64,000 nt of DNA from Poseidonia sp. GTDB lineage: Archaea > Thermoplasmatota > Poseidoniia > Poseidoniales > Poseidoniaceae. The notes under the pieces are model-generated. The model searched no databases, was not told the origin of the DNA, and was given only the letters and a program-made list of their open reading frames with translations. Location: assembly GCA_965661285.1 (NCBI GenBank), contig CBFIDD010000001.1, positions 468,852 to 532,851 of the forward strand. Reading direction: 5' to 3'. A program made the position numbers and the translations under genes. Positions 3,707-52,129 of the stretch are shown here, one piece after another (the first letter of the stretch is position 1; each line of letters begins with the position of its first letter).

Positions 3707-4999
3707 TCAGCCCCAATTGCACGGTTCCAACACCGTTTGACCGCTCATGAACGGTTGAAGTGCCTCAGGAATCGCAACCCGTCCGTCCTCAAGTTGGTAC
3801 TGCTCCATGATGGCGACGAGCGCCCGAGAGGTCGCTACAGCGGTTGAGTTGAGGGTGTGGACGATGGGTTGGTTGGGATGACCGGGCTGGCCATAGCGAA
3901 TGCGCAAGCGGTTGGCTTGGTAGTCGGTGCAGTTGGAACAGGAAACGATTTCCTTGTACTGGTTGGCGCCGGGAATCCAGGCTTCCAAGTCGTATTTTTT
4001 AGCCGCAACCGTTCCCATATCGCCGGTGCAAATGTTGACGATTTCGTAGTGAACACCGAGGCTGTTCCACAAGTCAATGCAATTCTGGAGCAATTCTTCG
4101 TGAAGCGCCCAGGAGTCTTCGGGCTTGGCGATGATGATCTGCTCAATCTTGGTGAACTGGTGCACCCGCCAAATGCCGAGATCGCTCTGGCCGTGGCTGC
4201 CGACCTCGCGGCGGAAACACTGGGACACGCCGACCATGCGCAGCGGCATTTGCTCTTCGGGGATGGTTTCGTCCATGTACATCGCCGTGAGCGGGTGTTC
4301 TGAGGTGGCGATCATGTAGTACTTGTCGGGCTCAATCCCGTACATGACGGTCTCAAAATCGCCGAGGTCCGTGACGCCCTCGTACGCTTCCCGGTTCATC
4401 ATGACCGGCGGCTGAACAAAGGTGTAATCCCGCTGGCGAAGGAAGTCCACGGCGTACTGCTGGAGGGCGAATTCGAGTCGGGCAAGGTCGCCTTTGAGGA
4501 AATAGAAGCGGCTCCCGGTGATTTTGGCGGCACGCTTGAGGTCGACCCACTTGTTCATCTCGATGAGTTCGTTGTGCGTGCGCAGCTCAAAGGTAAATTC
4601 CGGCTTGGTGCCGTGAACGGCATGGGCTGTGTTACCGGATTCATCGTCGCCCACAGGGACATCTGCATGCAGGATGTTGGGGATGGACATGCGCAACCTG
4701 TCGCGCACCGCCATGGCTTCGTTGGTCTTGGCTTCCATCTCCGCAATCTTTTGTCCAAGGTCGGCGACCTGGGCCAAAATGGCCTCTGCGGCTTCATGGT
4801 CGCCCGCTTTCTTGGCGGCGCCTATGCCCCGAGCCGCCTCGTTTTTTGCACGACGAAGCTGGTCGGTTTCGTGGAGAAGATTGCGCCAGGCTTGGTCGAG
4901 ATCGATCACCTTCTCGATGTTGTCGTGGGGCAGGCCACGCTTCGTGTGGTCGGCGCGAATCGTATCGGCGTGTTCTCTAAACATGGTCATGTCAAGCAT
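3707..4999 (-). CDS. serS: Serine--tRNA ligase
   Basis: N-terminal coiled coil; ATSEHP, CFRRE, RVHQF and EIVSCSNCTDYQ class II motifs. Confidence 0.98.
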   Translation of the reverse strand: MLDMTMFREHADTIRADHTKRGLPHDNIEKVIDLDQAWRNLLHETDQLRRAKNEAARGIGAAKKAGDHEAAEAILAQVADLGQKIAEMEAKTNEAMAVRDRLRMSIPNILHADVPVGDDESGNTAHAVHGTKPEFTFELRTHNELIEMNKWVDLKRAAKITGSRFYFLKGDLARLEFALQQYAVDFLRQRDYTFVQPPVMMNREAYEGVTDLGDFETVMYGIEPDKYYMIATSEHPLTAMYMDETIPEEQMPLRMVGVSQCFRREVGSHGQSDLGIWRVHQFTKIEQIIIAKPEDSWALHEELLQNCIDLWNSLGVHYEIVNICTGDMGTVAAKKYDLEAWIPGANQYKEIVSCSNCTDYQANRLRIRYGQPGHPNQPIVHTLNSTAVATSRALVAIMEQYQLEDGRVAIPEALQPFMSGQTVLEPCNWG

Positions 5000-5004
5000 T
5001 TGGA

Positions 5005-7215
5005 TCACCACGAGATGTTGAAACTGAAAATATCGCCACCGACAAAGAGCAAGCCGCCGATGAAGAAGCCCAAAATGGCCCCACCGTTCAGCAAGGGTAG
5101 GCCGGCTTGGGCCTTCCCTCGAGCCACGTAGGTCATCAAAACAAGGTAGCCCAAGAGCGCACCGACGAGGGTGAACATGGCCACTTCAAACGCAACACTC
5201 GGATCAAGCCACTGCATGGCAGAAAGGACGAGCATGCCCGGGAAGATGATGTCGCCCAAACCCATGAACATGGCTTCGCTGTTCTTCTTTCTCTTCCGCT
5301 TCACCACCGCACCCTCGGGAGGCGGAGAGGGGGCCGGGCGCTTGGCGCGTTCGGTCTCCTCGATGAGGGAATAATCGCTGTCTTGCGGGGCGACGAGGAG
5401 GATGGGGAGGCGCAGGCCAACCATCGTGTCGGCCAAATCCAACATGTGTTTTGACTTGTAGACGGCCCAGAAATCGTAAACGGCTGCGAGCGCCATGAAC
5501 ACGATGGCCAAGGCGGGCACAAACGTGACGCCCAGCATGACCGAGACACCGGCACCGAGCAGCACGCCCGTGGTGTTCACGACGTACCATTCGCTGTGGA
5601 CCACCAGCAAAATCAGCAAGAGCACGGTCACGGCAAGACCGGCGAGGGTGGGTCCAGTCAGTATTTGGAGCCCGTAGAGCGGGAACATCTCCGAGGTCAG
5701 TTCTCCCCGTTCAATCACAGTTGTCTGAGTCCCACCGGGTGAAGAGCGAAGCACGACCAGTTCGGCATCATCATCATCGAGAGCGAAGAAGACGTTGTGT
5801 ACATCCTCAGCGACGTCGAAACTGGCCCGATTCACGAGGGAGGTCGTGTACAACCAATGCGCTTGGCCATCGCCAACGACCAACAGATCGCTGTATCCCG
5901 AATCGTCCAAATCGGTAATTCGAACCGACGAGACCTCGCTCACCAATCCGTCAAGATTCATCCGTTCTTGGACGGTGTAGGCTTCCTCACCTTCGAGCGT
6001 TCCATTCCACTCAATGCCGACCACTGAACCTTCCGAATCACCGATGATGATGAAGCGCTGGGATTGGAGTTGCGTACCGATCTCGTTGAAATTTTCCGTC
6101 ATGAACGGCGACCATCCAACATCAGCAGAGGTGAACGAAGCGGTCGCATCGGATGCTTGTTGCATGAGATAGGTTGCATCGGCGAGGGCGCCCTGGACGG
6201 CGTCGTCAAGGGGTGGGGCATTGCTCTCGAGCAGAACGCTTGCCGCCAAATCAGGGGTGACCAGCAACCATTCATCCTCGTCCAGCAGATGGCTCTCGAC
6301 CGGTGTGTTTTCAGTTGAAAATCCGGGAATCGCCCATCGGGCTTGGTAGGTGAGCACACCGGGGAATTCCTCAAAGGTGTTGAAACGAACCATTTCATCA
6401 TAAGCGTTGATGAGGTAGACAGCATCGGTTGTTGAAACGGCAAGGACACAACCCGCATACATGTTGTCCAAGGGGCGGTACTCCCCATCAACCCAGGTGT
6501 GGCAAGCATAGCTCTCGGTCAACTCCCCGGTTGTTATGTCGACGGACCAGGCGTAATCTCCGGAGGCAAAGGTCAGCATGTCGTTGGAGGTGGTCATGGT
6601 CAGCGCGATGGCTGATTTGTACACTTGATAGGGGTGAGAGAGGTTCCAGACCGGCTCAACATAGTCGTTGGATGCATCCCACGCTGTGAGTTCCACGGTG
6701 GTGTTGACGCCGCCTTCTTCCACCGTGTAGAGAATGTATCCGTATTCCCCCCACGTGCCGACGAAAACACCGTCCTGATCTTCTGCAGACTCGATCTCAA
6801 AGGGCGTGGTCTCAAAGTTGAGGACCAACATGTGGGCAAGCGGCACCGTGGTGTACATCAGCGCGATGGTCAGCACGGCGTACATCCCGTACTTGATGAT
6901 GTACTGCTTTCCCCATTTGGCGAGGAAAATGATGAGGGCCGTGAAGGCAAAGATCGCCACCAGTTCAAGGGCAACGTAGCGAACCTGGGTGGCGCCTGAG
7001 GCGCCGAACGCATGCAATTCACCCACGTCGTAGTAGGGTCGGATGTACATGGCAAGCGCAATGGTTGCGACGAACATGCCGGCCATGCCGGCCATGCCGC
7101 GCCACTGCTCGGCCATCAGCGAGCCAAGACCTTCGCCATCACGAAGTTCGTCCTCAACGTCGGCGAAGCGCTGAGAAACGTGACGCTCCTCGTTGGACGC
7201 TGTCGCATCGCTCAT
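5005..7215 (-). CDS. Presenilin-family intramembrane aspartyl protease (PSH/A22) with large inserted ectodomain
   Basis: Catalytic YD (AVYDFWAV), GxGD (MGLGDIIFP) and PAL-equivalent GLPLLN; about 385 aa of extra sequence after TM3. Start codon uncertain (7215-7260). Confidence 0.9.
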   Translation of the reverse strand: MSDATASNEERHVSQRFADVEDELRDGEGLGSLMAEQWRGMAGMAGMFVATIALAMYIRPYYDVGELHAFGASGATQVRYVALELVAIFAFTALIIFLAKWGKQYIIKYGMYAVLTIALMYTTVPLAHMLVLNFETTPFEIESAEDQDGVFVGTWGEYGYILYTVEEGGVNTTVELTAWDASNDYVEPVWNLSHPYQVYKSAIALTMTTSNDMLTFASGDYAWSVDITTGELTESYACHTWVDGEYRPLDNMYAGCVLAVSTTDAVYLINAYDEMVRFNTFEEFPGVLTYQARWAIPGFSTENTPVESHLLDEDEWLLVTPDLAASVLLESNAPPLDDAVQGALADATYLMQQASDATASFTSADVGWSPFMTENFNEIGTQLQSQRFIIIGDSEGSVVGIEWNGTLEGEEAYTVQERMNLDGLVSEVSSVRITDLDDSGYSDLLVVGDGQAHWLYTTSLVNRASFDVAEDVHNVFFALDDDDAELVVLRSSPGGTQTTVIERGELTSEMFPLYGLQILTGPTLAGLAVTVLLLILLVVHSEWYVVNTTGVLLGAGVSVMLGVTFVPALAIVFMALAAVYDFWAVYKSKHMLDLADTMVGLRLPILLVAPQDSDYSLIEETERAKRPAPSPPPEGAVVKRKRKKNSEAMFMGLGDIIFPGMLVLSAMQWLDPSVAFEVAMFTLVGALLGYLVLMTYVARGKAQAGLPLLNGGAILGFFIGGLLFVGGDIFSFNISW

Positions 7216-7312
7216 GGTGGTGCCAATCCACTCTTCCATATCAGCCTCGCGTTCTTGCAAGGTGTGAGTACCGAAGGAAAGAGCCTATGGTGAACGGTGG
7301 GCTGCACCGAAC

Positions 7313-9132: not shown

Positions 9133-10956
9133 TCAAGGCGTGTAGTTGAGGAACATGAAGATGCCAAAGAGGAAGATCAGCATCGGGACGATGAAGATTT
9201 CAAACAACGAACGATTCTTCGCCAGCACGTCCATCTCCGTCCCGTAGTGCATCACCGAAGCATCACCCGTTTCGGTGGTCGGGACCATCGTGAGCAAAGC
9301 CTGCGCCAGCGTATCGTGGCTGCCCCACGCTTCCATGTGCTCACGTTTGCGAGGGACGCAATCGCCCAAGATGTAGAGAGGGTCACCGATGCCCACACCG
9401 ACGAGGTCCCACTTCCAATCGCCTCGCTGCCACGAATCGAGCAAGGGCCCGTAGTCGAGGGGCTTTTTGACCCACAAGGACGGGTCGATGAGCATCCCGC
9501 CCGAACCGTCGTGAATCATGAAGGGGACGCCCCCGCTCTTGGTTTCTCGATGCTCCCACGAACAGTGGGTGTCACCGTCCGAATTGGTTCGGCACACGTA
9601 CTGGTAGGACTTCCACTGCCAGGCCACCAAGCCTTTGTGCGTGCGACCTCCGACCGTCATCTCGGGTGTTCCAGCCACGGAAGGCCGCACCTGACCGACG
9701 AGTTCTGCTTGGCCAACGGCCGCACTGCGAATTGGGGAGGTTGGCAGGTCCCGAATCAATCGATTGAGTTTGAACTGTTTCCATGCACTGTAAAACCAGA
9801 TGAGGTTGATGACGGTTACCGCTATGGTCATGCCCCAGCCGAGCGTGGTATGAAACGCTGAACCGTCCCTCGCTCGAAGGTCAGCAGAGAGCCAAATAAA
9901 CGACGAGGCAAACACCAGAGCGCCCAAACTGTAGGGCGTGATGAAGGCCGCTTTTGGTGTGCCGATGACCTGAGGGTGCTCAGGAATGAGGCGCCCGCCC
10001 TCGTCACCCGCGTACGGCTCGTCAAAGCGGGTCGGCGTTGGCGCGCCGAAGAGCCAGTCGTTCTCCACCGAGCGCGAGGGGTGGTTGCTGTACGCCAACG
10101 GCGCAAAATTCGGGCCGAAATGGGGGAACAAGCGCCCGCTGGAACCGAGCACGCCCGGAGCCGAGGTGGTGTCCATGGCCGCCGAACGGTTTGCCTTGCG
10201 AACCTTTCGCAGTTCTACAAGCAAGGGCGGGGACGTGCTGTACATGAAGATCAAACCGCTGAGGCCGGAGCTGAGCAAAGCCCAGCGGCCCCGGTCCTCT
10301 CGCTGGGTGACCTCTTGCGGGTCATTGGTCGGGTTGTTGAGGTTGCCAATTTCCGATACCGAGAGCAGTTGGTAGCGAGGGGGGTCCTCCTCAACCAGAA
10401 CAAATGCATTGAATTTGGAGTTGCATTCGCAATCAACGCCGTGGCCTTGAATCGTCCGTGACCACTCGCTTCCACAACCGGGGTCGATGACCTCGCCTTC
10501 GGGTGAGAGCGAACCTTCAAGCGAAAAGGCCGCTTGGATGGCGACGCCTTCTGAATCCATCATGGTCAACGGCTGGGCGTCTGCCATCCAGAAATCATAA
10601 TCCCAGCTGCCTCCACCCTCGCCGTCTTCCTCCCACGAACAATCATCGTAGGCAAGAACACCTTCGACCAGTTCCAACGGGATCACGACAAAGGCAGCTT
10701 CCGATGCGTATTCCCCACTGCCATAGCCCTTCTGAAGAGGACCGTGGTCGTACAAGCCCATATCGTCGTGGAGGTAGGGAAGAACGGTCGCTTCTTCAAC
10801 GCGAGGAATGTCCGGAATAACGAGGCTGCTCGTGTACATTCCAAAGGCAATCAAGACACCGAGGAGGGACAAAAGGTAGCCCGCCATGTGTCTGCCCTTC
10901 GGTTTTGGGAGGAAGAAGAAACCTTGGTCGATGCTGTGAACATCGGTCGGCCCCAT
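9133..10956 (-). CDS. Membrane protein with C-terminal GIDE-like domain and N-terminal Cys-containing ectodomain
   Basis: RLIRDLPTSPIRSAAVGQAELVG...VPFMIHDGSG...GDPLYILG pattern. ATG at 10956 has TTATA about 28 nt upstream; the ORF-track extension to 11133 runs into the repeat. Confidence 0.75.
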   Translation of the reverse strand: MGPTDVHSIDQGFFFLPKPKGRHMAGYLLSLLGVLIAFGMYTSSLVIPDIPRVEEATVLPYLHDDMGLYDHGPLQKGYGSGEYASEAAFVVIPLELVEGVLAYDDCSWEEDGEGGGSWDYDFWMADAQPLTMMDSEGVAIQAAFSLEGSLSPEGEVIDPGCGSEWSRTIQGHGVDCECNSKFNAFVLVEEDPPRYQLLSVSEIGNLNNPTNDPQEVTQREDRGRWALLSSGLSGLIFMYSTSPPLLVELRKVRKANRSAAMDTTSAPGVLGSSGRLFPHFGPNFAPLAYSNHPSRSVENDWLFGAPTPTRFDEPYAGDEGGRLIPEHPQVIGTPKAAFITPYSLGALVFASSFIWLSADLRARDGSAFHTTLGWGMTIAVTVINLIWFYSAWKQFKLNRLIRDLPTSPIRSAAVGQAELVGQVRPSVAGTPEMTVGGRTHKGLVAWQWKSYQYVCRTNSDGDTHCSWEHRETKSGGVPFMIHDGSGGMLIDPSLWVKKPLDYGPLLDSWQRGDWKWDLVGVGIGDPLYILGDCVPRKREHMEAWGSHDTLAQALLTMVPTTETGDASVMHYGTEMDVLAKNRSLFEIFIVPMLIFLFGIFMFLNYTP

Positions 10957-11046
10957 ACCTCCACTATGGGCTATCGTCCTATAATTCAACCTCCGGAACG
11001 GTACAAGGAAGGGAAGAACGGCGGAGAAAAGGCCCAGTGGAGGTCG

Positions 11047-11196
11047 TGCCGGGGCAGGATTCTCACTCAAACGGCTTAGCAGCCGTGCAGTTCTCACCCT
11101 GCTGCTGGGTAATGCCGGGGGCAGGATTCTCACTCAAACGGCTTAGCAGCCGTGCAGTTCTCACCCTGCTGCTGGGTAATGCCGGGGGCAGGATTC
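11047..11196. repeat. tRNA-linked tandem repeat, 67-bp period: two full units plus the tRNA 3' end
   Basis: Units 11047-11112 and 11113-11179 are identical except for 4 vs 5 G. Each starts (plus strand) with tgccggg(g)gcaggattc, the reverse complement of the tRNA 3' end at 11180-11196. Confidence 0.95.
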
Positions 11197-11261
11197 GAAC
11201 CTGCGAAGCAATATGCAGAGGAGCTTGAATCCACCCCCTTTGACCACTCGGGTACCCCGGC
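11180..11261 (-). tRNA. tRNA-Leu (anticodon CAA)
   Basis: Minus strand folds with a GCCGGGG/CCCCGGC acceptor stem, D-loop AGTGG, anticodon loop TT-CAA-GC, long variable arm, T arm GCAGG-TTCGAAT-CCTGC and discriminator A; no encoded CCA. Confidence 0.93.
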
Positions 11262-11294: not shown

Positions 11295-14200
11295 CTATTC
11301 CTCTTGTGGAATGTCCGCCAAATCAACGGGTTTCGGGGGCGGTCGACGATGCGAAACGATGCGTCGAATTCGTTCCAAGTGATATGATTCAGCGCGTTGA
11401 GCGCGTTGCTGTCGAACGACGAAGAGCACCATGCCCGCCACGAGCAAGGAAAGCGCCGAAAGGCTGAGTGTCGCCATGCTGCTGTTGGCGTCATCGCCCT
11501 CGCCCGCTTTGATATCAGCCATGGGAACCGGAACCTGCGGCGTGTGGTTGACGATCTCGAGATTCAGGCCTAGCCGACCGACTTTCCAGGCCTCGATGTT
11601 CCATACGAAATTCACCCATTCTCCAGAAGCCAGCGACCGCGTTTCGTTGGCCATGATGCGTCCTTCATCGTCTCGTAGCAGCACGTTCATCTCCCCTGGC
11701 AAGAGACCGTCGTTGGCAATCCGGGCATAGATCGAAACGTTCTCACCAACGGTTGGGCGGAACGGGGTGGCTGAGAGGTCGGTGAGAACGGGTTCAAACG
11801 CATACCACGTCAACCCGACGTTCAGTGGCGCACGTTCTGTCCCGTAGCCCGTCAAGGTTCGTCCAGACCGGTCGCTGGCCTCGAACCAGACGATGAGCAC
11901 ATCACTGCGTGTCAACGCAACATCGTTGGGGAGGAAGTTGACCGTCCCGTTGTACACCGTGAATTCATTGACCACCTCACGAAGCGGGAGGAAGAAGGCC
12001 TTCTCGGTGCCCGCCACGGGTTGACCAAGACGATAGAACACAGCATGCATCTTCAGCGCGGTGGGTGGCATATCGGTGTCGTCGCTGATGCTCAGGGAAA
12101 CCTCAACCGCTTCCAGTTCATTGGAGGGGAGGTTCTCAAGCATCCCCGGTTCGAGAACGAGTTTTGGTGCAGCATCATCCACGACGACGTTGTAGTGCAG
12201 GGGACCGAAGGCTCGCTCATCGTAGCCTTGAGCCTCAACGGTCAGGGTGCCGGTATCGTTGTACATCACGTTCTCGTTCATGGAGACGTTGAATTCCACC
12301 GCCCCGGATTCGGTCATGTTGAAATGTCCAATTTCAGACCGCTCACCATCACTCAGCGTCCAGACAAACGAACCCGTTGCTGGGAGGTCGCGGGCGAGCA
12401 CGTCGGTGCCGTTGTGAAACACCCCAATGCGATGATGGACCGCCTCGTTTCGATGGAACCAATAGGTGGAGCCGTTGTTATCACCGAAGGGCGCTTGCAT
12501 GTCGGTGATGTTCAGCCATTCAACGCCAACCTCGGTACCGGGAGTCCAGGACAATCCGCCCAACTGATACAATCCAAGACCGAGGTCCTGCCCTTCATCG
12601 AACACCTTGAGGGAGGGCGTCCCACCCTCTGCAGCGATGGTGGTGCTGGCGTTCCAGTCCAAGCGGAACGAGACGGTCACGTCGTAGGTGGTCACCAGCG
12701 GTCGTTTCACCACCTGTACGGTGGGTGCTTCAATGAAACACAACTCGTCGAATTCCACGCCGCCAAAACGAGGCTCGTAGTGGATGAAGCAGGCCGACTC
12801 GTTTGTTTCGCCCAAGAGCGCCAAACGAAGGCTTTCGAGCGAGGAAATTCCATTCGCGTCGCCTAAGGCAAACGAGAAGGTGTGTTCGTGGCCCGCCAGC
12901 AAACGGTTGTTGATCCGGTCGAGACGGAGGCTCTCGACGTCAACGGTGGTGTCCGAGCGTCGCTGAACGCTGATGGTGGCCAGATCGTCCGATTCACCGA
13001 AGGACCCGCCGCCGGTCAAGGGATTTCCAGCGAGATCTTCTCCCTTCAGAACCACGCTCACGCGCCCAACCGGGCTGTTGTCGGGCACCACGCTTTGGGA
13101 CGAAAGAAGAGGAAGGTCAACCTCGAGTTGGGCGACACCGCGGTTTAGACTCACGGTTTGCATCGTGTATTCGCTCTCTTCCATGATGCCGTTGCCGTTG
13201 GCATCGTCGCGCCGCTCAAGCCACGTCCACACCTCCAACTGACTCGAGAGTCCTTCGGGGTCGCTGAGTTGAAGCCGCAAGGCGATGTCCTTGCCGTACA
13301 TCGAAACATGGCCGTCGGCGACCACTTCCTGTCCCGAATCCAAGACATGCAGGGAATCCACCTCAGGTGGAACGGTGTCGTGCAAAAAACGGGTCGGCGT
13401 CAACACCACCGTTCGGTCCTCGCTCGTCGTGACGGCGTCAACCGGCCCACGACGCGTGAGACTGGGTCGAAGTTCGAAGAAGGTGTTACTCGGAAGGCCC
13501 TCTGACTGCGACGGTGTCGAGAGTGAAACAGAGAACCACCCTCCCGATGTGACCTCAGCCGACCATGCTCTCGACCAGTTGACAGGTTCGTTCAACCACT
13601 CGTCGGGGCCCCCCGAGAGGTTCTTTGATGGTACGGCTCGCAACGTCACGGTGACTTCGGCTTCACCGGCGTCTACCCACTGGTTCGCAATGCCTTCCAT
13701 CCGAACCCGCCCCTCGGCATGCAGGGTTTGGTTTTCGTTCAGGTGGTAGGGCCAGAAGGAATTGGTCCAGTCGTCAATCCGGCGTTGGTCGGTGTCTGAG
13801 ACAGTAAAATCAACCACTTCAAGGTCGTTTTCAACCTCGTTGAACGCAGTTTTCCTCACGAACACCTCCGGTCCGGTCTCAAGCCCGTTCTCGTCTTGGG
13901 CCGTCGTCAAGACATGGAGGTCGTCCATATCGTTGAGCAACCATGTGCTGGTCAGCACCCACTGAACACTGCAAGTGTTGAGGGTGCAGGAGACACTGGA
14001 AGCGGCAGCGTCCAAGTGCGCGAGGCCCACACCGTCCAATTGCCTGAATCGAGGCGCATCTTGAATCCGGTCAAGTTCGACATGAACGACAGCGTCATTG
14101 AGGTCGCCGGACGGCGAGAGATGGAACGCCACCTTGGTGATGTCAGGGGCATTCTCGCTCGCATCGAGAGGGTTGAGGCGCGTGTGGTGCGTGGTGAAGG

Positions 14201-17200
14201 AGACCGTTTGTTCTGGTAGCCATCGCGTGTAGCTGGGGGCGTCCACCTGTTCCACCATCACGGGTACAGCGGAGGCTCCAACGGCCACGCGTAGACCCCC
14301 TCGCTGCGTCATGATGTGAAGGGGCACATCCAATACGGCTCGCATATCACCGTCATACGAGGCCTGCTTGGCCGAATTGAGGGAAGTGGCGGAGAGGTCC
14401 ACTTCGACGGTGGTATCGGGAAGAAGGTGCATCAGGTTCAGAACTTTGACATCGGCAACGCCCACAACGGTGATGTCAAGAGCGCAGGTCAACAACGAAC
14501 GGTTGGTCGAGAAAGCCGCAACCGAGGTGACCGAAGCACACGGTGAGGAACCTTGGTGTTGGATCATTCCGCCATGGCCGATGGTTTGTACGACCCCGCC
14601 GATGCGCACCTCCGCACCCTCGCTGGCATTGCTCACCATGAGGGAAAAGGCCGGGCCTTCCCCGGGTGGGAGGTTGGAGGGCAGACGACTGAGCGTTCGG
14701 TACGCCAGCTGCAAACTCGAGTTTTCCATCGGGATTGAGGGCGATGATTCGTTATGGGCCCAGAGAATATCCGTCCCGTTGTGAACGGCTTCGGTCCATC
14801 GGGTGTTGAGGCCAAGATGGTCGTCCATCCCGATTGGCGGCCACGTCATGACGGAGACGTTGTTCCACCCCAACGCCATGGAGGGCGCTTGTGGCGGGAT
14901 GACACAATCCAATTCCGCCTTGGCACGAACAAACGCTTCTCCACCCGTGGCCGTGAGGGTAAACGCAGGCATCAACGCCATCGTACCTCCAAGTGAATGG
15001 TTCAGGAAGGTGGTTTTTATCGGCGAGGGGGAATGCGACGAGGCCACCACCTGGCCGTTTGGTGTCGTCCATGTGAGGTTATCACCCACCGTCGTGAGTC
15101 GGTAGCCATCGTGGGGGCAAGCCACAAAGCGGGGCAGCGGGAGCGAGAAGGGGGCTGCAACCTGAAGCGTTCCATTCTCATCCATGCTCGAGGTGGCGGC
15201 GCCCGTGGGCCTGTCAAGGACATGCTGCGGACCAATGTAGGTGGTTCGTCCGACGCTAAGGCTGTGGACCAAGGGCGTCACAAAGGTGTCGTTGGTGCTC
15301 ATACGGACCCGGACATGCACCGTTGGATGCTCGTTTGGGTCGAGCGCCAATTGAGCCGGAAGCTGCAGATGCTCATGCTGCGGGATGGGGTTGTGCTGGG
15401 CATCGAGAATGTCAAACAGCAAGGTGGTCCCATCAGGGCGTTCGTACCAGCCATCAAGCCAGCCGTATCCAAAAATCGGGTCGGGGGAAATCGGCTTGGA
15501 AATCCAGCTCCCGGCCGGTTCAAACACGTCCACTTCAATGCCGGCGTCGTCGATGTACCAACCATCGCCTTCGATGTACGTGTCTGAAAAGAATGAGAAG
15601 CGCGCTTTGAGCGACTGCCCGGAAAGATTGGACAAATCGTAGGTCTTCAATTCAAAATCCCGTGGATTGGAGGCGCCGCAACCACCGGCAACGCTTGAAC
15701 CATCGATGATGCCTTGGCTGAAAAGTGGTGAATTGGTGTTTACGGTGGAAATTTGGTCGTGGAAGCCGTTGAGTTGAGGAGGAAGCCACCACCACTGTTG
15801 ACCGCCATCGGTTGAGATGGAAACGCCGCCACCGTCCCAATTGGCTTCGGTGCATACCCACGAACGGAAGGAAAGGCGTGCTGAGGCATTGGTCGGAATG
15901 CTGTATTCTTGCGTGGTCAGATGCGTGTAGATGTTGTTGGTGTATTTCGTGGTCAAATTCACGGCGGCGCCGTTTTGTCCAGAATAAAAGACACCGGGGC
16001 CGTAGCCGGATGTGTCGCGGGTTTGACCGATTTCCCAACCGTCAGGCCACGTGCCTTCAATGACCCAACCCGGAGGGGTTGTCATCGAGGATTCAAAGGA
16101 CTCAACACGCGATTCTGGAGGGTTGACGCCAAACGAGCTGGTCCAGTTCCATTCGTTGATTCGATTTGATGAGCCGTCCAACCAACCCCGCTGGTCGCCC
16201 ACCTCTCCGGTGGTGAGAGAGGAAAAATTCGACACTTGGAGGCGTTCCTCCTGGGCGGTCCCCGGCCGGTGGACGACCTGCACGTTGTCGATGGCGACGC
16301 CTTCCCAACTCGACGAAGCAAAACCCCCGTAGCCGGTTTGCTGGTTGGTCATGACTTGAAACATGAAGAGGATGCTTGATGCGTTTGGGTGTGAAGAAAC
16401 AGCACTGGGGAGATTGTAGGAGATGGGGCGCCAGCCCAGAGATTCATCCGTGTAGTAGGTTCCTTGAATGGATAGCCCGTTTCCGGGAAGACCTGGGATT
16501 CCTGAAACCGGTGCCCATGTCGTCCCGTTGTTGACGCTGATGTAAACCATGAGATTGTCTGAATACGACCCCTCAATGTCCCAGTTGGCCCAGAATTCAA
16601 TCTCCATTGGCCCAGTGAATGATGAGAGATTGGCGGGGAGCAAAAGACGACCGTCGGCATTGTCCGCATAATCGCCGCTCATGTTTCCGTGGAACCACGC
16701 ACCGGGAAGATCCCCGAGGTTGGTCAGGGTGAAATTATCCAAAAACCAGCCTGCTCGGTCGCCAGCCGTGGTTGATGTTTGGAAACAAAATCGGATTTCA
16801 AGCGTGGTGGCCGCCGAAGGAATGACCCCGTCGAGATTGAAATGGGCGTGCTCCCATGCGCTTGACTGGCCCGACCAAACCGCACCCGGCGTTCCACTGA
16901 GCGTCGAGGTGTTGGTGTAGGAAGGACGGGGTGTCAACACCTGCCACGCACCGCCCGTCGTACGGGCTTCCACCCATGCTGCATCGTCGTCCTTGAATGA
17001 AAGCCAATGGTCGAAGGTCAAGTTGTACTGATTGACAAAAGCCGGTACCAATTCCTCAGGCGAGGCCAGGCAACCGCTCATGTTGGCCGACAACCCTCCC
17101 AAGGCTTGGGTGGCCAGCACGCGCTGACCGTCCGTCGCCGTCGAGGGTTGGTGTTGAACAGCCGTACCGTTCAGAGGTAGGACATTCCACGCGTTGTGAT

Positions 17201-17648
17201 GAGGACCTTCGCCTTCCCAATCCGGAAGGGTTTCGATGAGGGTTTCAAAGTCGGTCAGACTGGCCAAGGTGCTCTCGGTTGCCAAACTCAACTGACCGCC
17301 GTGTCCGATATCTTGGGTGTCATCATGGGTGCCACTCCAACCGGTATTGGCGTCAATACCGAAGCGGGTCGCTGTGTCGGGGGCTTCCGCCCACATCGGG
17401 GTGACGGACAGGGAACCGCCCGAAAACGTGTGATTGTACGGGACGCTCAGGATGCCTGTGCTTGTCAAATTGAGACCCAATTCGTTCGGTTGGGGCGTGT
17501 AGTATGTGGCTCGTGCAGGGCTGTCCTGTGCGGACGGCTCGGCTGCGGGAACCATCGAAGACAGCGAGACCAACACGATCAGGAGGCATAAGCCAACGGC
17601 AACGGCGGGCTTTTGCGCCGAAACACCGGGACCTGGACAAGCCGTCAT
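11295..17648 (-). CDS. Giant cell-surface protein (~2100 aa): signal peptide, 3 jelly-roll (MAM/M6-associated-like) repeats, Ig-like stalk, CARDB-like domain, C-terminal TM
   Basis: Hydrophobic N-terminus; repeats ending WFLDNF / VAIDNV / WYIDDA; DDANGNG Ca-loop; TM LSLSALSLLVAGMVLFVV followed by a basic tail. Start uncertain. Confidence 0.85.
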   Translation of the reverse strand: MTACPGPGVSAQKPAVAVGLCLLIVLVSLSSMVPAAEPSAQDSPARATYYTPQPNELGLNLTSTGILSVPYNHTFSGGSLSVTPMWAEAPDTATRFGIDANTGWSGTHDDTQDIGHGGQLSLATESTLASLTDFETLIETLPDWEGEGPHHNAWNVLPLNGTAVQHQPSTATDGQRVLATQALGGLSANMSGCLASPEELVPAFVNQYNLTFDHWLSFKDDDAAWVEARTTGGAWQVLTPRPSYTNTSTLSGTPGAVWSGQSSAWEHAHFNLDGVIPSAATTLEIRFCFQTSTTAGDRAGWFLDNFTLTNLGDLPGAWFHGNMSGDYADNADGRLLLPANLSSFTGPMEIEFWANWDIEGSYSDNLMVYISVNNGTTWAPVSGIPGLPGNGLSIQGTYYTDESLGWRPISYNLPSAVSSHPNASSILFMFQVMTNQQTGYGGFASSSWEGVAIDNVQVVHRPGTAQEERLQVSNFSSLTTGEVGDQRGWLDGSSNRINEWNWTSSFGVNPPESRVESFESSMTTPPGWVIEGTWPDGWEIGQTRDTSGYGPGVFYSGQNGAAVNLTTKYTNNIYTHLTTQEYSIPTNASARLSFRSWVCTEANWDGGGVSISTDGGQQWWWLPPQLNGFHDQISTVNTNSPLFSQGIIDGSSVAGGCGASNPRDFELKTYDLSNLSGQSLKARFSFFSDTYIEGDGWYIDDAGIEVDVFEPAGSWISKPISPDPIFGYGWLDGWYERPDGTTLLFDILDAQHNPIPQHEHLQLPAQLALDPNEHPTVHVRVRMSTNDTFVTPLVHSLSVGRTTYIGPQHVLDRPTGAATSSMDENGTLQVAAPFSLPLPRFVACPHDGYRLTTVGDNLTWTTPNGQVVASSHSPSPIKTTFLNHSLGGTMALMPAFTLTATGGEAFVRAKAELDCVIPPQAPSMALGWNNVSVMTWPPIGMDDHLGLNTRWTEAVHNGTDILWAHNESSPSIPMENSSLQLAYRTLSRLPSNLPPGEGPAFSLMVSNASEGAEVRIGGVVQTIGHGGMIQHQGSSPCASVTSVAAFSTNRSLLTCALDITVVGVADVKVLNLMHLLPDTTVEVDLSATSLNSAKQASYDGDMRAVLDVPLHIMTQRGGLRVAVGASAVPVMVEQVDAPSYTRWLPEQTVSFTTHHTRLNPLDASENAPDITKVAFHLSPSGDLNDAVVHVELDRIQDAPRFRQLDGVGLAHLDAAASSVSCTLNTCSVQWVLTSTWLLNDMDDLHVLTTAQDENGLETGPEVFVRKTAFNEVENDLEVVDFTVSDTDQRRIDDWTNSFWPYHLNENQTLHAEGRVRMEGIANQWVDAGEAEVTVTLRAVPSKNLSGGPDEWLNEPVNWSRAWSAEVTSGGWFSVSLSTPSQSEGLPSNTFFELRPSLTRRGPVDAVTTSEDRTVVLTPTRFLHDTVPPEVDSLHVLDSGQEVVADGHVSMYGKDIALRLQLSDPEGLSSQLEVWTWLERRDDANGNGIMEESEYTMQTVSLNRGVAQLEVDLPLLSSQSVVPDNSPVGRVSVVLKGEDLAGNPLTGGGSFGESDDLATISVQRRSDTTVDVESLRLDRINNRLLAGHEHTFSFALGDANGISSLESLRLALLGETNESACFIHYEPRFGGVEFDELCFIEAPTVQVVKRPLVTTYDVTVSFRLDWNASTTIAAEGGTPSLKVFDEGQDLGLGLYQLGGLSWTPGTEVGVEWLNITDMQAPFGDNNGSTYWFHRNEAVHHRIGVFHNGTDVLARDLPATGSFVWTLSDGERSEIGHFNMTESGAVEFNVSMNENVMYNDTGTLTVEAQGYDERAFGPLHYNVVVDDAAPKLVLEPGMLENLPSNELEAVEVSLSISDDTDMPPTALKMHAVFYRLGQPVAGTEKAFFLPLREVVNEFTVYNGTVNFLPNDVALTRSDVLIVWFEASDRSGRTLTGYGTERAPLNVGLTWYAFEPVLTDLSATPFRPTVGENVSIYARIANDGLLPGEMNVLLRDDEGRIMANETRSLASGEWVNFVWNIEAWKVGRLGLNLEIVNHTPQVPVPMADIKAGEGDDANSSMATLSLSALSLLVAGMVLFVVRQQRAQRAESYHLERIRRIVSHRRPPPKPVDLADIPQEE

Positions 17649-17775
17649 GGGAGAAACACCTCGCTGTGTGAGGTGGGGTTTTGTGATATGAAAGGGTGTT
17701 ATGATTGCGTCATTCAAAGAGAACCGATTGTTTGCATGAAGAGGATTCAAATCCCGTCACCCTCACGTCGTCAAC

Positions 17776-22079: not shown

Positions 22080-23312
22080 TCACTTGTAGTAGAGACGGAT
22101 CACGAACTGGTCGATGTTGAAATCGTTGACCCGTTCGTTGCGGATTTTCATGGTCCATTCGCCGTCGCCGTAGGTGGACTCCGTGTCGGCGAACATGTAG
22201 CCTGAGAGTTTGAGATGGATACAGTCCTGCTCACTGTCGCAATCGCCGTCGTCTCGAGACTCGATGTCGGTGGAGGTGGTGTTCTGCGCTTCCTCGTCCT
22301 CTTCGTTGTAGGCGTAGATGTCCAGTTTTGCTCGGCAGTTGTTGGCGCCAGGCAGGGACGTGCAATCGCCGTCTTCTTTGGGATATTCAAGTTCAATCTG
22401 CGCCTTCACAATGGTGTTTCCTGCAACTTTGTCGTAGTGGATGAGCGAGTCAAAATCCAACTCTGCGGGGTTACCGCTGCTGTTGCCTCCAATTTCAAAA
22501 TCGCTCCAATAACCGGCATAGCTGACGTACACTCGGATGGTGGCGCTGTCCGTCATCTCAACGTTATTTGTGACCGTCAGCCCGATTTCGTATTCGCCAG
22601 GGGCGACGTTGCTCCAATCGACGGTGGCACCGACCAAGTCATCATCGTTTTCAGGGTCGCCGTCGTTGTCCTTATCTTCGGTTAAATCAAGGTCCCATGC
22701 ATACCCGTCTTCGGGGATGTATTGTGAGGTTGCATCGCCCGATTCCGAAGACGACGCATCGAGTTGAACCGTGGTGGTTTCGGTGATGGAACGGTCGGTG
22801 TTGGTCTTGTCTCGAGCACAGATCCACACGAGAATATGCCGTGTTTCGGTAATCTCCTCGTCCTCGCAGTCCTCATCGTCAGCATACTGGGTGATTTCGG
22901 CGGTCGGGGCTTCTGCACTTTCGGGCGACACCGTCAGGTCTCGAACTTGTTCGGAGGTGGTGGTTCCATCGGAAACCTCCAAGGTGATTTTGTAGGTCTT
23001 TGCTTCGTCAAAGGTCCATGTCGCTGTAAGCCCCGTCGCGTCAATGTCGATGGAACCTTCGGTATCGAAATTCCACCGATACGTCAAGGACCCGTCACCC
23101 GGCGTGGAGCTCGAAGCATCGAAACTGACGGTCGTGCCAACCTTGACGTTCTTGCTTGGAGAAAAACTGAACACGGCGAGAACCTCCTCACGGTCAGCCT
23201 CCGAGCCGTCTTCGAAGATGCAGCCCGCCAACGAAGAGCAGAGCATCAAGCCCGCCATGAGCACGGAACGCGTGTACCTTCCCATGAACCGACGTGGTGG
23301 CTCGTTCATCAA
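22080..23312 (-). CDS. PKD-domain lipoprotein
   Basis: Lipobox SSLAGC; two PKD-like units (FDASSS...YRWNF; LDASSS...YAWDL); acidic and Cys-rich. Confidence 0.8.
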   Translation of the reverse strand: MMNEPPRRFMGRYTRSVLMAGLMLCSSLAGCIFEDGSEADREEVLAVFSFSPSKNVKVGTTVSFDASSSTPGDGSLTYRWNFDTEGSIDIDATGLTATWTFDEAKTYKITLEVSDGTTTSEQVRDLTVSPESAEAPTAEITQYADDEDCEDEEITETRHILVWICARDKTNTDRSITETTTVQLDASSSESGDATSQYIPEDGYAWDLDLTEDKDNDGDPENDDDLVGATVDWSNVAPGEYEIGLTVTNNVEMTDSATIRVYVSYAGYWSDFEIGGNSSGNPAELDFDSLIHYDKVAGNTIVKAQIELEYPKEDGDCTSLPGANNCRAKLDIYAYNEEDEEAQNTTSTDIESRDDGDCDSEQDCIHLKLSGYMFADTESTYGDGEWTMKIRNERVNDFNIDQFVIRLYYK

Positions 23313-39760: not shown

Positions 39761-39848
39761 GGTTGACGCTTGCTGTTAACCGAATATAAACGGTTCCTCC
39801 ATGCACGAATTTCGGTCACAGTGCTGTTCCGGAGGATTTTTTGAGGGA

Positions 39849-42800
39849 ATGCCCACCATGCCAATCATGCGTGCGTGGTTTATCACCGCTGTGTTGGTCG
39901 CCGTCGCATGGTCGCCGATGTTTTCTCCGACCGTCGAATTGGACAGGGGGACGCCCGCCAGCCATTCCAGTCCGCTCCAGGCCACCGTCTCACCCGCCAG
40001 TGGATGGACGAGCGGAGGCGAGGACATCACCATCACCGGCAATGGCTTTTTGGCCATGGCTGACAGAAACGTCACCTACGACGGCATCAATCACCAGTGG
40101 ACGACCTTAACCGCGGATTATGCTGACGAATCAGGACCCGAAAACGCCATCGTCGTTGATTCCAACGGCCACGTTCACATCGTCTACATCAACGGTGGAA
40201 ACCACAAGATCATGCACGCTGAGCACGATGGCACGTCTTGGAGTACGCAAGAGGTCGACGCCTGTGCTGGGAGTTATTGCTGGGACGCCCATATGGTCAT
40301 CGATGACAACGATGAACTCCATGTGACTTACTCAGCCCAAGGAGAAAAACTCGTCTATCAGCACTACGACGGTCAAGATTGGAACGGCGGCGTTGTCTCC
40401 TCCTACGCACGATTTGCACCGGTCGGCATCGCCGTTGACAGCAACAACCTCCCCCACATATCCTATTCCGCATCAGGTCAGTGGTGCGGTAATGGTCTCC
40501 GTCTTGCATCGTTCGACGGAAGCGTATGGACCACCCAGAGCGTTGATTCGGGGACAAACAAGGGTTGTGATTCTTCCATCGTGATCGACGAGAACGATCA
40601 CGTCTACATCGCCTACCAGGACCGAGACAATTCAAAGCTGAAATTCGCCACCAACAAAAGCGGTTCGTGGTTGAGTTATTCCCCTGATGCTTCCTCGTTT
40701 GGCAACAACATGTACCCGGGCTATTCCACCTCATTGGCCATGGATGATGACGGCGACTTTCACATCGCCCATTACGACAGCGATAACGAAGATTTGCGCT
40801 ACTCGACGGGCAGACCCAACGGCCAGTGGACCAACACCATCGTTGACGCTTCGGGAAATACGGGCAAAAATCCCTCCATCGCGGTTGACGCCGCCGGTGA
40901 TTTGCACATCGTCTACGCCAGTTGGTCGGGTTTTGACTTGAAGTACGCCACGCTCAAACCGTCCTCATCTTCCTCCTGGCAGAAAAGCCACATCCAGACG
41001 CAGAACATGGTCGGGGATTCAAACGCCATCTTCATCGACGACAACGGCATGATCCACGTTGCCTACAGCGACGACTCCAACGATGTTCTGAAGTACGCCA
41101 CGAAGTCCACCGGTGTCGTTGTCACCGACGAAATTACCGTGAAGTTTGGCCAGCTCGGGGCGGTTACGGGCGATGTGCTGGACGATGAGACCATCCAACT
41201 CACGACGCCGTCGGTCGCTTCGCCCGGTGTGGTCACCGTCTCCCTCATTGACGAGAATGGCGATGAGCACACCTTGGCGCCTTCGTTCGAATTCATTGAC
41301 CAAAACGACCTCGACGGCGACGGGGTGGCGAACGCTGCCGACGACTGTCCCAACGATGCAGGAACATCGACCCAAGATCGGGTTGGTTGCCCTGACGACG
41401 ACGGTGACGGGTACAGCAATGCAGGGGATGCGTTTCCCAACGACGCCAGCGAATGGATGGACAGCGATAGCGACGGAGTCGGCGATAACGCTGATGCCTT
41501 TCCCAACGACGCTTCCGAAACACTCGATTCTGACGGTGACGGCGTGGGTGACAACGCAGACATCTTCCCAAACAACCGATTTGAGCAGTACGATTCCGAT
41601 GGTGACGGCGTCGGCGATAACGCTGATGCCTTTCCCAACGACGCTTCCGAAACACACGACACCGACGGTGACGGCGTGGGCGACAACGCCGATGCCTTCC
41701 CATTGAACGCGTTTGAAACGATGGATTCCGATGGCGACGGCGTGGGCGACAACACCGATGCGTTTCCCAACGACCCCACAGAATCGGCAGATACCGACGG
41801 GGATGGCGTGGGCGATAACGCCGATGCGTTTCCCAACGATGCCTCCGAAACGACGGACAGCGACGGGGATGGCGTGGGAGACAACGCCGATACGTTTCCC
41901 AATGACGCCAACGAAAGCGTCGATGCCGATGGTGATGGCGTGGGCGACAACGCCGACCAGTGCCTTGACACGGAGGCGGGCGCCGTTGTGGACACTACCG
42001 GATGCCTGGTGGTCACCGATTCGGACGGCGACGGCGTGGCTGACGCCGACGACCAGTGCCCCAACGAGAACGCTTCGCAGGCCGACGATGACGGCGACGG
42101 ATGTCTGGACGACGATGACGATGACGGGGTGCTCAATGACGACGACGTATGTCCCTTCACCGACCCGGGAGAAACCATCAACGCCGAAGGATGCAGCAAC
42201 GGCCAGTTGAGCGTCTTGGACACCGACGCCGACGGGGTTTCCAACCTTGACGACCTCTGCCCCGATACACCTGCCAACATCAGTGTGGATGCGACGGGGT
42301 GTGCCGTCACCGACACCGGCGGTGGCGGGGACGATTCAGGCTCGCTGCTCGATGCCTTCCTTTCCGGCGACGCCGACCCTGTCACCACGACCGTTGGTAT
42401 CGGTGCCATTCTCATCGCCCTCTTTGGGCTGCTTCAAACCAATGCAGTGGCGGCCTTGCTTCCTGAGACCTTCCGATGGGTACAGGTGCTCCGAAACAAC
42501 ACCAAGTTGACCAAAGAAGAAGAAAACGAATTGACGTACTTGCAATCGTTGACCCAAGCCTACCACACCAACCCCGAAGAGTTGGCTGAGGAACTGGAGC
42601 AATTGCGCGGCGACCTCACCGCCCGGTATGCGAACAACGAGATCAGGAAGGAAACCCGAGAGAAGCTCATGACGCTGATTGACGATGTGTTGGCCGCATC
42701 GCCCGAGCAACTGAACCGCATCGCTCACAACGACGCCTACTTTGGCCTCGCCGGGGCCATCGACACCGAAGACCGCACCCTCCTGCTCAACGAAAAGTTG

Positions 42801-43004
42801 GCCATGACGGCCCCCGCAGGTACTGCTCCAGCCGCCGCACCTCCCGCCTCACCTCAACCAACCCACGCCCCAAGCGAGCCCACAATCACGGCGGTGGGGA
42901 CGGTCAAGGACGACGGATACGAATGGATTGAATGGCCCCAAGGCAGCAGCACTTGGTACTACCGAACAGCGCATTCACGCACACGTTGGACCAAGTGGCA
43001 TTGA
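39849..43004 (+). CDS. Surface protein: split IPT/TIG domain with inserted beta-propeller, TSP type-3 Ca-binding repeats, TM, cytoplasmic helical and Trp-rich domains
   Basis: Signal peptide; PASGWTSGGEDITITGNGF; blades IxxDxxxxxHIxY...LKYA; DxDGDGVGDNAD repeats; TM IGAILIALFGLL. Confidence 0.88.
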   Translation: MPTMPIMRAWFITAVLVAVAWSPMFSPTVELDRGTPASHSSPLQATVSPASGWTSGGEDITITGNGFLAMADRNVTYDGINHQWTTLTADYADESGPENAIVVDSNGHVHIVYINGGNHKIMHAEHDGTSWSTQEVDACAGSYCWDAHMVIDDNDELHVTYSAQGEKLVYQHYDGQDWNGGVVSSYARFAPVGIAVDSNNLPHISYSASGQWCGNGLRLASFDGSVWTTQSVDSGTNKGCDSSIVIDENDHVYIAYQDRDNSKLKFATNKSGSWLSYSPDASSFGNNMYPGYSTSLAMDDDGDFHIAHYDSDNEDLRYSTGRPNGQWTNTIVDASGNTGKNPSIAVDAAGDLHIVYASWSGFDLKYATLKPSSSSSWQKSHIQTQNMVGDSNAIFIDDNGMIHVAYSDDSNDVLKYATKSTGVVVTDEITVKFGQLGAVTGDVLDDETIQLTTPSVASPGVVTVSLIDENGDEHTLAPSFEFIDQNDLDGDGVANAADDCPNDAGTSTQDRVGCPDDDGDGYSNAGDAFPNDASEWMDSDSDGVGDNADAFPNDASETLDSDGDGVGDNADIFPNNRFEQYDSDGDGVGDNADAFPNDASETHDTDGDGVGDNADAFPLNAFETMDSDGDGVGDNTDAFPNDPTESADTDGDGVGDNADAFPNDASETTDSDGDGVGDNADTFPNDANESVDADGDGVGDNADQCLDTEAGAVVDTTGCLVVTDSDGDGVADADDQCPNENASQADDDGDGCLDDDDDDGVLNDDDVCPFTDPGETINAEGCSNGQLSVLDTDADGVSNLDDLCPDTPANISVDATGCAVTDTGGGGDDSGSLLDAFLSGDADPVTTTVGIGAILIALFGLLQTNAVAALLPETFRWVQVLRNNTKLTKEEENELTYLQSLTQAYHTNPEELAEELEQLRGDLTARYANNEIRKETREKLMTLIDDVLAASPEQLNRIAHNDAYFGLAGAIDTEDRTLLLNEKLAMTAPAGTAPAAAPPASPQPTHAPSEPTITAVGTVKDDGYEWIEWPQGSSTWYYRTAHSRTRWTKWH
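41303..42305 (+). repeat. Intragenic thrombospondin type-3-like repeats (69-bp/23-aa period in the core)
   Basis: Tandem units D[ST]DGDGVGDNADAFPNDASET; near-identical DNA ggcgataacgctgatgcctttcccaacgacgcttccgaaaca occurs twice. Confidence 0.9.
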
Positions 43005-51595: not shown

Positions 51596-51736
51596 GGTGG
51601 TCACCCGACATTTCCCTGTACGGATTCCATCGCATTTGAATGATGCCCTTTCACGGCAACCCACCAAATCTCCAAATTGAACCATGACAGGGGAGCATTC
51701 AAGGCCTCCAACGGCTTGGTGAGGACAGGTGAAGGC

Positions 51737-52129
51737 ATGAGCGAAGAGGGGACCTTCTTTGGACGACTTTGGGCCAAACAACATGGAAAACAATTCGGCA
51801 TCAGTGCCGTTGCGGCTGGGGCCAGTGCCACACTCCTGGTGGCCTGCATGTACCAGATTCTCTTCCTTCAGGACCACGCCGACTGGAACGAATTCACTGG
51901 AGCCGCCATCATCGGTTCCGTCGCCTCCCTCATCGTCTTCCTCATCTCGTTTCCAGAATACCTGCGTTTCAAAGGCTATGTCTCGGAACTTGAGGAATTG
52001 AAGGACATCCAGTCAACGGCCGAACTTCGCCGCAGGAAAGCCGACGGTGACGAAGCCGCTGAAGCCTTGGGAGCGGGGCATCTCGAGCAGTGGAAAGCAT
52101 TCCTTGATAGTCGCGGCGTGAAGCGGTAA
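51737..52129 (+). CDS. Small two-TM membrane protein (DUF3198-like)
   Basis: AGGTGA RBS; 2 TMs and a helical C-terminus; family name tentative. Confidence 0.7.
   Translation: MSEEGTFFGRLWAKQHGKQFGISAVAAGASATLLVACMYQILFLQDHADWNEFTGAAIIGSVASLIVFLISFPEYLRFKGYVSELEELKDIQSTAELRRRKADGDEAAEALGAGHLEQWKAFLDSRGVKR

Follow-up and report, generated by a model that had tools for sequence, protein, structure and literature searches.

What determines which membrane proteins a presenilin-type protease will cut is an open question of medical weight. Gamma-secretase, where a separate subunit, nicastrin, is part of the answer, consists of four proteins and is difficult to work with, and the archaeal model enzyme for structure and mechanism is a bare helix bundle of 301 amino acids (aa) without an ectodomain. 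The locus described here lies in a 64-kb stretch of DNA from Poseidonia sp. (the window: 64,000 nucleotides, positions 468,852 to 532,851 of contig CBFIDD010000001.1, assembly GCA_965661285.1) and encodes a presenilin homologue (PSH) in which about 385 residues stand between the third and fourth transmembrane helices (TM3 and TM4). It raises the question of what this insert is and what it might do for the protease that carries it. Structure prediction gives the insert, with high confidence, the fold of a beta-propeller; a natural enzyme with a presenilin core and an outer propeller in one chain would permit direct tests of ectodomain gating. Coordinates and residue numbers refer to the window and to the numbering of the 751-aa form that starts at a TTG codon.

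The gene occupies window positions 5005..7260 on the minus strand as a single uninterrupted open reading frame (ORF), 751 aa long when counted from the TTG at 7260, with its stop codon at 5005-5007. Two ATG codons are likelier starts, M8 (7237-7239; 744 aa) and M16 (7213-7215; 736 aa), because homologues start at residues aligned with one or the other; M16 is invariant in a 27-sequence alignment. By its family matches, the protein is a presenilin homologue of peptidase family A22. Pfam PF06550 (SPP/presenilin aspartyl protease) matched with an E value of 2.3e-48 (165.6 bits; cut-off 23.9) over residues 538-738 only (profile positions 92-280 of 283), and the NCBIfam equivalog NF041679 (PSH) matched in two separate stretches (E 5.2e-61, 206.6 bits; cut-off 125). 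The catalytic YD is found at residues 595-596 (5473-5478), inside model helix 582-601, and GLGD at 667-670 (5251-5262), at the start of model helix 669-684. Both motifs are kept in all 80 of the genome loci that we compared, which were drawn from one genome per GTDB species and represent the best 80 of at least 535 relatives obtained from at least 600 pattern matches. A PLL equivalent to the PAL motif lies at 722-724 (5089-5097) within an invariant QAGLPLLNGG block before TM9, and this block aligns with the corresponding block of the solved PSH. With a catalytic core that is intact by these motifs, the protein has the appearance of an active nine-helix presenilin-type (GxGD) intramembrane aspartyl protease. 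An earlier note on this DNA, made from its letters alone, had described a single-chain presenilin homologue of 736-751 aa with intact YD and GLGD, and we agree; the motifs PLAH (140-143) and TLAGLAV (538) are likewise where it had placed them. The parts of the gene are as follows.

5005..7260, minus strand: whole PSH gene with its inserted ectodomain (ORF, Pfam, NCBIfam, homologue starts)
7129..7260, minus strand: N-terminal tail, residues 1-44 (composition, model, alignment to solved PSH)
6823..7128, minus strand: TM1-TM3, residues 45-146, ending in the conserved PLAH (model helices 45-80, 93-116 and 119-146)
5656..6819, minus strand: insert, residues 148-535, predicted beta-propeller ectodomain (model strands 158-521, window 5698-6789)
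6448..6504, minus strand: C253 (6502-6504) and C271 (6448-6450), candidate disulfide, invariant in the Poseidoniaceae-type family
5878..5913, minus strand: DLDDSGYSDLLV, residues 450-461, loop resembling a calcium-binding loop (D-x-D-x-S-G-x-x-D between predicted strands)
5458..5658, minus strand: TM4-TM6, residues 535-601, with YD (model helices 535-554, 558-576 and 582-601)
5257..5457, minus strand: TM6-TM7 loop, residues 602-668, rich in K/R (model helix 605-616, strands 621-625 and 663-667)
5044..5262, minus strand: GLGD, TM7-TM9 and PLL (model helices 669-684, 687-713 and 721-739)

Helices and strands are listed in the order in which they follow one another in a full-length AlphaFold2 model made from 51 sequences, with a predicted local distance difference test (pLDDT) score of 83.8 and a predicted template modelling score (pTM) of 0.73. 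The model has nine predicted membrane helices, three before the propeller and six after it. When a family profile was compared with the solved 301-aa PSH (4hyc/4hyg), profile positions 525-721 aligned to chain residues 108-292 (E 1.2e-41), preceded by a weak N-terminal stretch (score -2.5) in which positions 42-126 aligned to residues 5-87; about 390 residues therefore occupy the place of about 20 in the solved enzyme. The earlier note had put an acidic, beta-rich insert at 5660-6820, which differs by only a few nucleotides from the 5656-6819 found here, and its composition is indeed strongly acidic (66 D/E to 10 K/R), with a median net charge of -50 among relatives. In the N-terminal tail, residues 1-28 are modelled with low confidence and a helix is predicted at 30-41. 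The tail is conserved and acidic (consensus ...VS.RFA.VEDELR...) and has no counterpart in the solved PSH, whose TM1 region is aligned from chain residue 5.

Modelled alone from a 42-sequence alignment, the insert was predicted with a mean pLDDT of 92.0 and a pTM of 0.91 (pLDDT across five models, 90.4-92.0). DSSP assigned 30 strands and three short helices to this model, which supersedes a crude Chou-Fasman estimate of 22 strand-like and two helix-like segments. A Foldseek search of the Protein Data Bank (PDB) with the insert model returned at least 500 matches at E<=0.001, and the 50 that were listed include DDB1 BPB, BamB, Cdc20, YncE, BBSome and WD40/WD-repeat entries, aligned over 383-448 columns (the whole domain) with a probability of 1.00 and 8-13% identity. 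We take the DDB1 BPB, BamB, Cdc20, YncE and WD40 entries to be beta-propellers, and we recognised no non-propeller among the matches listed. Structure prediction followed by a fold search had been proposed in the earlier note as the way to check for a propeller, and together they point to the propeller that it expected. The 30 strands would fit seven four-stranded blades and a hairpin, or eight blades of which some are short.

Sequence searches give a fainter signal. The window's insert matched no Pfam family at E<=10, and neither the insert itself (phmmer, best E 0.77) nor its 42-sequence profile (best E 0.86) had a significant match among PDB sequences. Internal repeats were not detected when 70-residue segments of the insert were compared by hhalign (best probability 1.8%), and an hhalign self-comparison gave no matches. 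Among 51 relatives scanned at E<=1, with protease families set aside, the sub-threshold Pfam matches were Beta-prop_BBS7 (8), FG-GAP_3 (4), FG-GAP (3) and PQQ_2 (2), together with the recurrent DUF5366 (3) and DUF4337 (2); that propeller families lead this list suggests weak but independent support for the predicted fold. A protein-language-model look-up in the ESM Atlas with the insert of one homologue (P0092) pointed to FG-GAP clusters with a score of 0.85, which we treat as a lead only, and the same look-up with a Thalassarchaeaceae-type insert (P0280) found nothing outside its own family (0.77).

The earlier note had gone further and likened one loop of the insert, at about 5881-5913, to FG-GAP repeats. 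The loop exists: DLDDSGYSDLLV was found at 5878-5913, and its DLDDSGYSD portion sits between predicted strands 443-449 and 458-463. Calcium-binding hairpins of FG-GAP blades likewise sit between two strands, and the loop may be a putative Ca2+ site over residues 450-458. The family label, by contrast, was not supported. FG-GAP propellers are defined by repeated blades with an FG...GAP consensus and by calcium-binding D-x-D-x-D-G-x-x-D loops in several of them, whereas the insert has one copy of such a loop (450-458), in which S replaces the third D. Below the cut-offs, FG-GAP_3 appeared in its four relatives with a best E of 0.0022 (19 bits; cut-off 26.9) and FG-GAP in its three with a best E of 0.019, and no integrin alpha chain was present among the 50 listed fold matches. 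With no profile above cut-off, one calcium-type loop, no repeats detected and no integrin among the listed matches, we do not assign the insert to the FG-GAP or integrin-alpha-type propellers; since membership failed in every one of these tests, we call the insert a beta-propeller without an assigned family. It has in common with BamB/PQQ, WD40 and FG-GAP propellers the predicted fold and the one FG-GAP-like calcium loop, and differs from them in falling below the Pfam propeller cut-offs, in its lack of a detectable repeat and in its low identity. Homology to nicastrin was rejected, as no PDB sequence, nicastrin included, was matched significantly and the recognisable fold matches were propellers.

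Conservation within the insert strongly indicates a scaffold under purifying selection: W205, G245, C253, C271, W309, G382, S384, G407, G411, D450 and G455 are invariant in an alignment of 32 sequences. The cysteine pair seen in the earlier note corresponds to C253 and C271, the only two cysteines of the entire protein, present in all 75 complete loci; they probably form a disulfide that staples the propeller. Directly before TM4 stands a strongly conserved M-F-P-L-Y-G-L-Q motif (window 5680..5700, minus strand, residues 521-527, on to 533), of which M525, G530 and Q532 are invariant in the same 32 sequences. This motif may couple the propeller with the helix bundle. The insert as a whole diverges about twice as fast as the core, with a mean pairwise identity of 0.38 compared to 0.69 and 0.71.

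On which side of the membrane the insert lies follows from presenilin topology, in which there are nine transmembrane helices, a cytoplasmic N-terminus and a TM3-TM4 loop that faces outward. We infer that the insert is extracellular, and the distribution of K/R is consistent with this: the TM2-TM3, TM6-TM7 (over 601-662) and TM8-TM9 loops carry 3, 12 and 2 such residues, respectively, and all lie opposite the insert's side. The TM6-TM7 loop is placed in the cytoplasm because it is K/R-rich. N-x-S/T sequons have a median of six per insert in 73 sequences, compared to none in 116 cytoplasmic residues, and 45 of these sequences retain the sequon at N419. Because the linkers that join the propeller to TM3 (about 11 residues) and to TM4 (about 13 residues) are so short, it must, if this arrangement is right, lie right against the outer side of the helix bundle, beside TM3.

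The insert is not peculiar to one assembly. In 75 of the 80 loci, TM1-TM3 precede an insert that measures 365-407 aa (median 385) and contains both cysteines; of the other five loci, two run into contig ends and three have a frameshift within the insert. In the latter (L030, L071 and L074, with match regions 6001-8192, 6001-8171 and 6001-8195), the PSH frame shifts from 1 to 3 inside the insert, which could be an assembly error or a genuine split into TM1-3 and TM4-9 halves. NCBI titles name 56 of the 80 loci as Poseidoniales and 24 at the level of the phylum. Among 5.8 billion proteins, a word-indexed search recovered 236 relatives with lengths of 413-1315 aa. The best 120 (512-795 aa) are PSH of Poseidonia or Poseidoniaceae wherever a source is named; by a crude hydropathy count, TM4 is preceded in 113 of them by a non-hydrophobic gap that spans 372-405 aa, and the remaining seven were mis-segmented (4), truncated (2) or without the anchor motif (1). 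With a divergent fragment as the query, 966 long relatives were found, some of them named Thalassarchaeum or Thalassarchaeaceae, and among 113 examined of this Thalassarchaeaceae type, 90 have a gap of 305-417 aa at the same place (16 are without the anchor motif, six are truncated and one is mis-segmented). Their inserts are colinear with the Poseidoniaceae-type insert profile (hhalign probabilities of 43, 85, 89, 97.6 and 97.7% for five groups, over 184-301 columns). The insert is thus not confined to this assembly, a point that the earlier note had left to be seen, and occurs in proteins that carry the names of Poseidoniaceae and of Thalassarchaeaceae. A tree of the helix core separates the two sets, and the insert is present in all 51 of its rows; because it stands on both sides of that tree, the insertion is older than the split of these two Marine Group II families.

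At the position of the calcium-type loop the Thalassarchaeaceae-type inserts are different. In P0270, P0280, P0292, P0374 and their relatives, L-A-D-C-C-x-G-G-x-N-D-L-W replaces the D-L-D-x-S-G loop (window residues 448-462), and other groups show W-N-D-G-G or N-N-F-A-Q. These inserts carry 2-8 cysteines in place of two, and the C-C-x-G-G types carry 4-8. The replacement suggests a remodelled metal or disulfide site.

We looked for the insert apart from the protease. An insert-only phmmer search of 1.84 billion cluster representatives gave 29 matches, six of them full-length (715-751 aa) with the same insertion place and most of the others fragments; none was a free-standing or differently fused copy. 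One match, the 2033-aa tandem-repeat protein P0138, was rejected as spurious. A tblastn search of 50,697 phage records with the insert gave no match. Of 1372 matches shorter than 413 aa, the best 120 include no genuinely short PSH with nine helices. All 120 lack TM1-3 and start inside or after the insert: 84 have one hydrophobic segment before TM4, 13 have none, 23 are without the anchor motif, and none has two or more. We read these short matches as C-terminal fragments. Several database gene calls on long contigs start inside the insert, for example the 313-aa P0181 on a 451-kb contig.

What, then, might a propeller at this place do? By analogy, we think that there is about an even chance that it is a built-in substrate filter or docking platform. 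The outward TM3-TM4 loop would here be replaced by an acidic beta-propeller of about 385 residues seated over the helix bundle, and this domain would select the single-pass membrane proteins, or the stubs left by ectodomain shedding, that are admitted to the active site. In substrate-bound gamma-secretase the substrate helix is surrounded by TM2, TM3 and TM5. A propeller on the outer rim beside TM3 would, from its place, have to limit which outer stubs can approach. We prefer filtering or docking because the same solution is known three times over in intramembrane proteases, in nicastrin, in the PDZ tandem of RseP and in the protease-associated (PA) domains of SPPL2.

The likenesses are partial in each case. 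Nicastrin is a subunit of its own, spans the membrane once and has a bilobed fold that is not a propeller. It resembles the insert in being a large extracellular domain over a protease of the presenilin fold, the side of the insert being taken from topology and its role from analogy; the domain described here, on the other hand, belongs to the protease chain itself, interrupts one of its loops and has the predicted fold of a propeller. Nicastrin is described, in the passages on its role, as the gatekeeper of gamma-secretase that excludes substrates with ectodomains that are too long (PMC6551803). SPPL2a/b/c belong to the same protease superfamily and are single chains with a luminal or extracellular domain of their own, although their PA domain is N-terminal rather than in a loop and has another fold. 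SPP and SPPL proteins are also oriented in the membrane opposite to presenilins. According to the relevant part of a study of SPPL2, its PA domains affect substrate recognition (PMC12043953). RseP and other site-2 proteases carry PDZ domains in an extracytoplasmic loop of an intramembrane protease, but the protease is of an unrelated metalloprotease family and the inserted fold is unrelated too; the PDZ tandem of RseP is presented, in the section concerned, as a size-exclusion filter (PMC7728848). C99 and Gurken-TMD fusions have served as model substrates of MCMJR1 (PMC2947513). The solved relative is this PSH/MCMJR1 of Methanoculleus marisnigri (PDB 4hyc, 4hyd, 4hyg, 4y6k; 301 aa), a member of the same family, with which TM4-TM9 align through the YD, GxGD and P-x-L blocks and nine membrane helices are predicted in common; the window's PSH exceeds it by about 390 TM3-TM4 residues and an N-terminal tail of about 45 residues, for 2.4 times its length.

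A bolder form of the filter reading is that Poseidoniales independently evolved a self-contained gamma-secretase-like enzyme in which the in-chain propeller does the work of nicastrin, measuring or recognising the outer stubs of type-I surface proteins, so that the shedding of giant proteins is coupled to the removal of their anchors or to signalling. We consider this doubtful, though not far-fetched. If true, it would be the simplest natural system for presenilin ectodomain gating in one polypeptide.

Several observations weigh against a propeller that filters substrates from outside the cell. The TM-scores to solved propellers, normalised to the query, are only 0.31-0.49, with root-mean-square deviations of 7-16 Å. 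Sequons are a weak guide to sidedness, as one at N562, in a loop predicted to be cytoplasmic, is kept in 34 of 73 sequences, and the N-terminal tail is acidic although the topology puts it in the cytoplasm. The fast divergence of the insert fits a diversifying binding surface but would also fit a loosely constrained spacer. The genes around PSH have housekeeping roles and offer no hint of its function, and archaeal PSH proteins have no known substrate (PMC2947513).

Of the other explanations, the one that fares best is that the propeller is a receptor or sensor that switches or localises the protease when it binds a ligand from outside, a surface glycan or a partner protein, possibly with Ca2+, so that a signal rather than substrate size controls proteolysis. 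Propellers commonly bind ligands and proteins, and the D-x-D-x-S-G-x-x-D loop is conserved, with D450 and G455 among the invariant residues. The divergence of the insert, at 0.38 identity compared to about 0.70 in the core, is what recognition surfaces often show, and the C-C-x-G-G swap with its 4-6 cysteines in the Thalassarchaeaceae type hints at a remodelled functional site. We nonetheless regard a sensor as unlikely, since we see no sign of a ligand, a partner gene or a regulatory neighbour in the window or the 80 loci, the calcium-type loop is single, and the present data suit substrate docking equally well.

The propeller might instead be structural, anchoring the enzyme in the envelope or S-layer, oligomerising it or stabilising its fold without any part in substrate choice. 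These archaea make many large surface proteins, four of which, of 1067-2151 aa (CARDB, PA14/LamG, TSP3/TIG and MAM), are encoded in the window itself, and a fast-evolving and very acidic surface is typical of exposed envelope proteins. However, a loop insertion beside TM3 on short linkers would be an odd route to a mere anchor, and the conserved motifs at the junctions (PLAH...D-F-E and M-F-P-L-x-G-L-Q) suggest coupling with the helix bundle, so we find a purely structural role quite improbable. That the long ORF is an artefact (a chimeric assembly, or two genes read as one), or that the protein is a protease-dead remnant, we think very improbable, as, despite the many database gene calls below 413 aa that start inside the insert and the three of 80 species loci that are frameshifted there, it is contradicted by an uninterrupted ORF of the same architecture in 75 of 80 independent species genomes, by the best 120 short matches, none of which has two or more hydrophobic segments before TM4 and which look like C-terminal fragments, and by YD and GLGD in every locus.

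Part of what we describe is already known, namely the catalytic family and, from the SPPL2 precedent, that a GxGD protease can carry an ectodomain. The novelty lies in the TM3-TM4 place, in the propeller fold as predicted, and in the presence of this form throughout a clade of abundant marine archaea. The earlier note had allowed that the insert might be a PSH feature already on record; we found no description of the long form in full-text literature on presenilin and Marine Group II or Poseidoniales (subscription journals and supplements being outside the scope), and nothing relevant in literature listings that join presenilin or intramembrane protease with propeller, insertion, extracellular domain, archaea or Thermoplasmatota. 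Databases name the long relatives PSH or "presenilin-like A22 family membrane protease". To our knowledge, Marine Group II archaea are uncultured and their surface biology is hardly known. The long PSH marks a conserved envelope protein of this group. Long forms are not mentioned in those passages of the founding archaeal PSH paper that deal with the topic (PMC2947513). In the surface ocean, Marine Group II archaea rank with the most abundant archaea (PMC6461757).

The genomic setting of the PSH gene is stable, and one neighbour overlaps it.

3707..5011, minus strand: seryl-tRNA synthetase gene, directly downstream of PSH (listed GTG start 5009-5011; 7-nt overlap with the PSH ORF)

This gene lies downstream of PSH on the same strand in 80 of 80 loci, and on the upstream side 75 of the 80 have a Mur-ligase/FolC-like gene, divergent in all but four. 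No candidate partner or substrate gene adjoins PSH in the window or in the 80 loci. The window also encodes a 666-aa protein (9133..11133, minus strand) that matches no Pfam family and bears hydrophobic segments close to its two ends; it is near PSH in 20 of 80 loci.

Other window genes touch on the envelope. Type-I single-pass proteins are, after shedding, the class that presenilin-type proteases cleave. Two very long proteins, one of 2151 aa with an InhA-like MAM domain (11295..17750, minus strand) and one of 1782 aa with CARDB (46529..51877, minus strand), each end in a hydrophobic C-terminal segment followed by a charged tail, from which they appear to be type-I single-pass anchored; their sole link to PSH would be that they belong to this substrate class. 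Surface-type proteins are further encoded at 57479..62773 on the plus strand (1764 aa, PA14 and LamG domains), at 39801..43004 on the plus strand (1067 aa, TSP3 and TIG repeats) and at 22080..23312 on the minus strand (410 aa, PKD domains). The window also holds a second intramembrane protease (54639..56096, minus strand), a 485-aa M50 site-2 protease (Peptidase_M50, E 5e-29) with a PDZ_2 domain at 211-284 within the protease domain; a PDZ domain in an M50 protease is the textbook example of an intramembrane protease with an inserted extracytoplasmic filter domain. The only RNA gene that ARAGORN and Rfam found in the window is a tRNA-Leu(CAA) at 11180..11261 on the minus strand.

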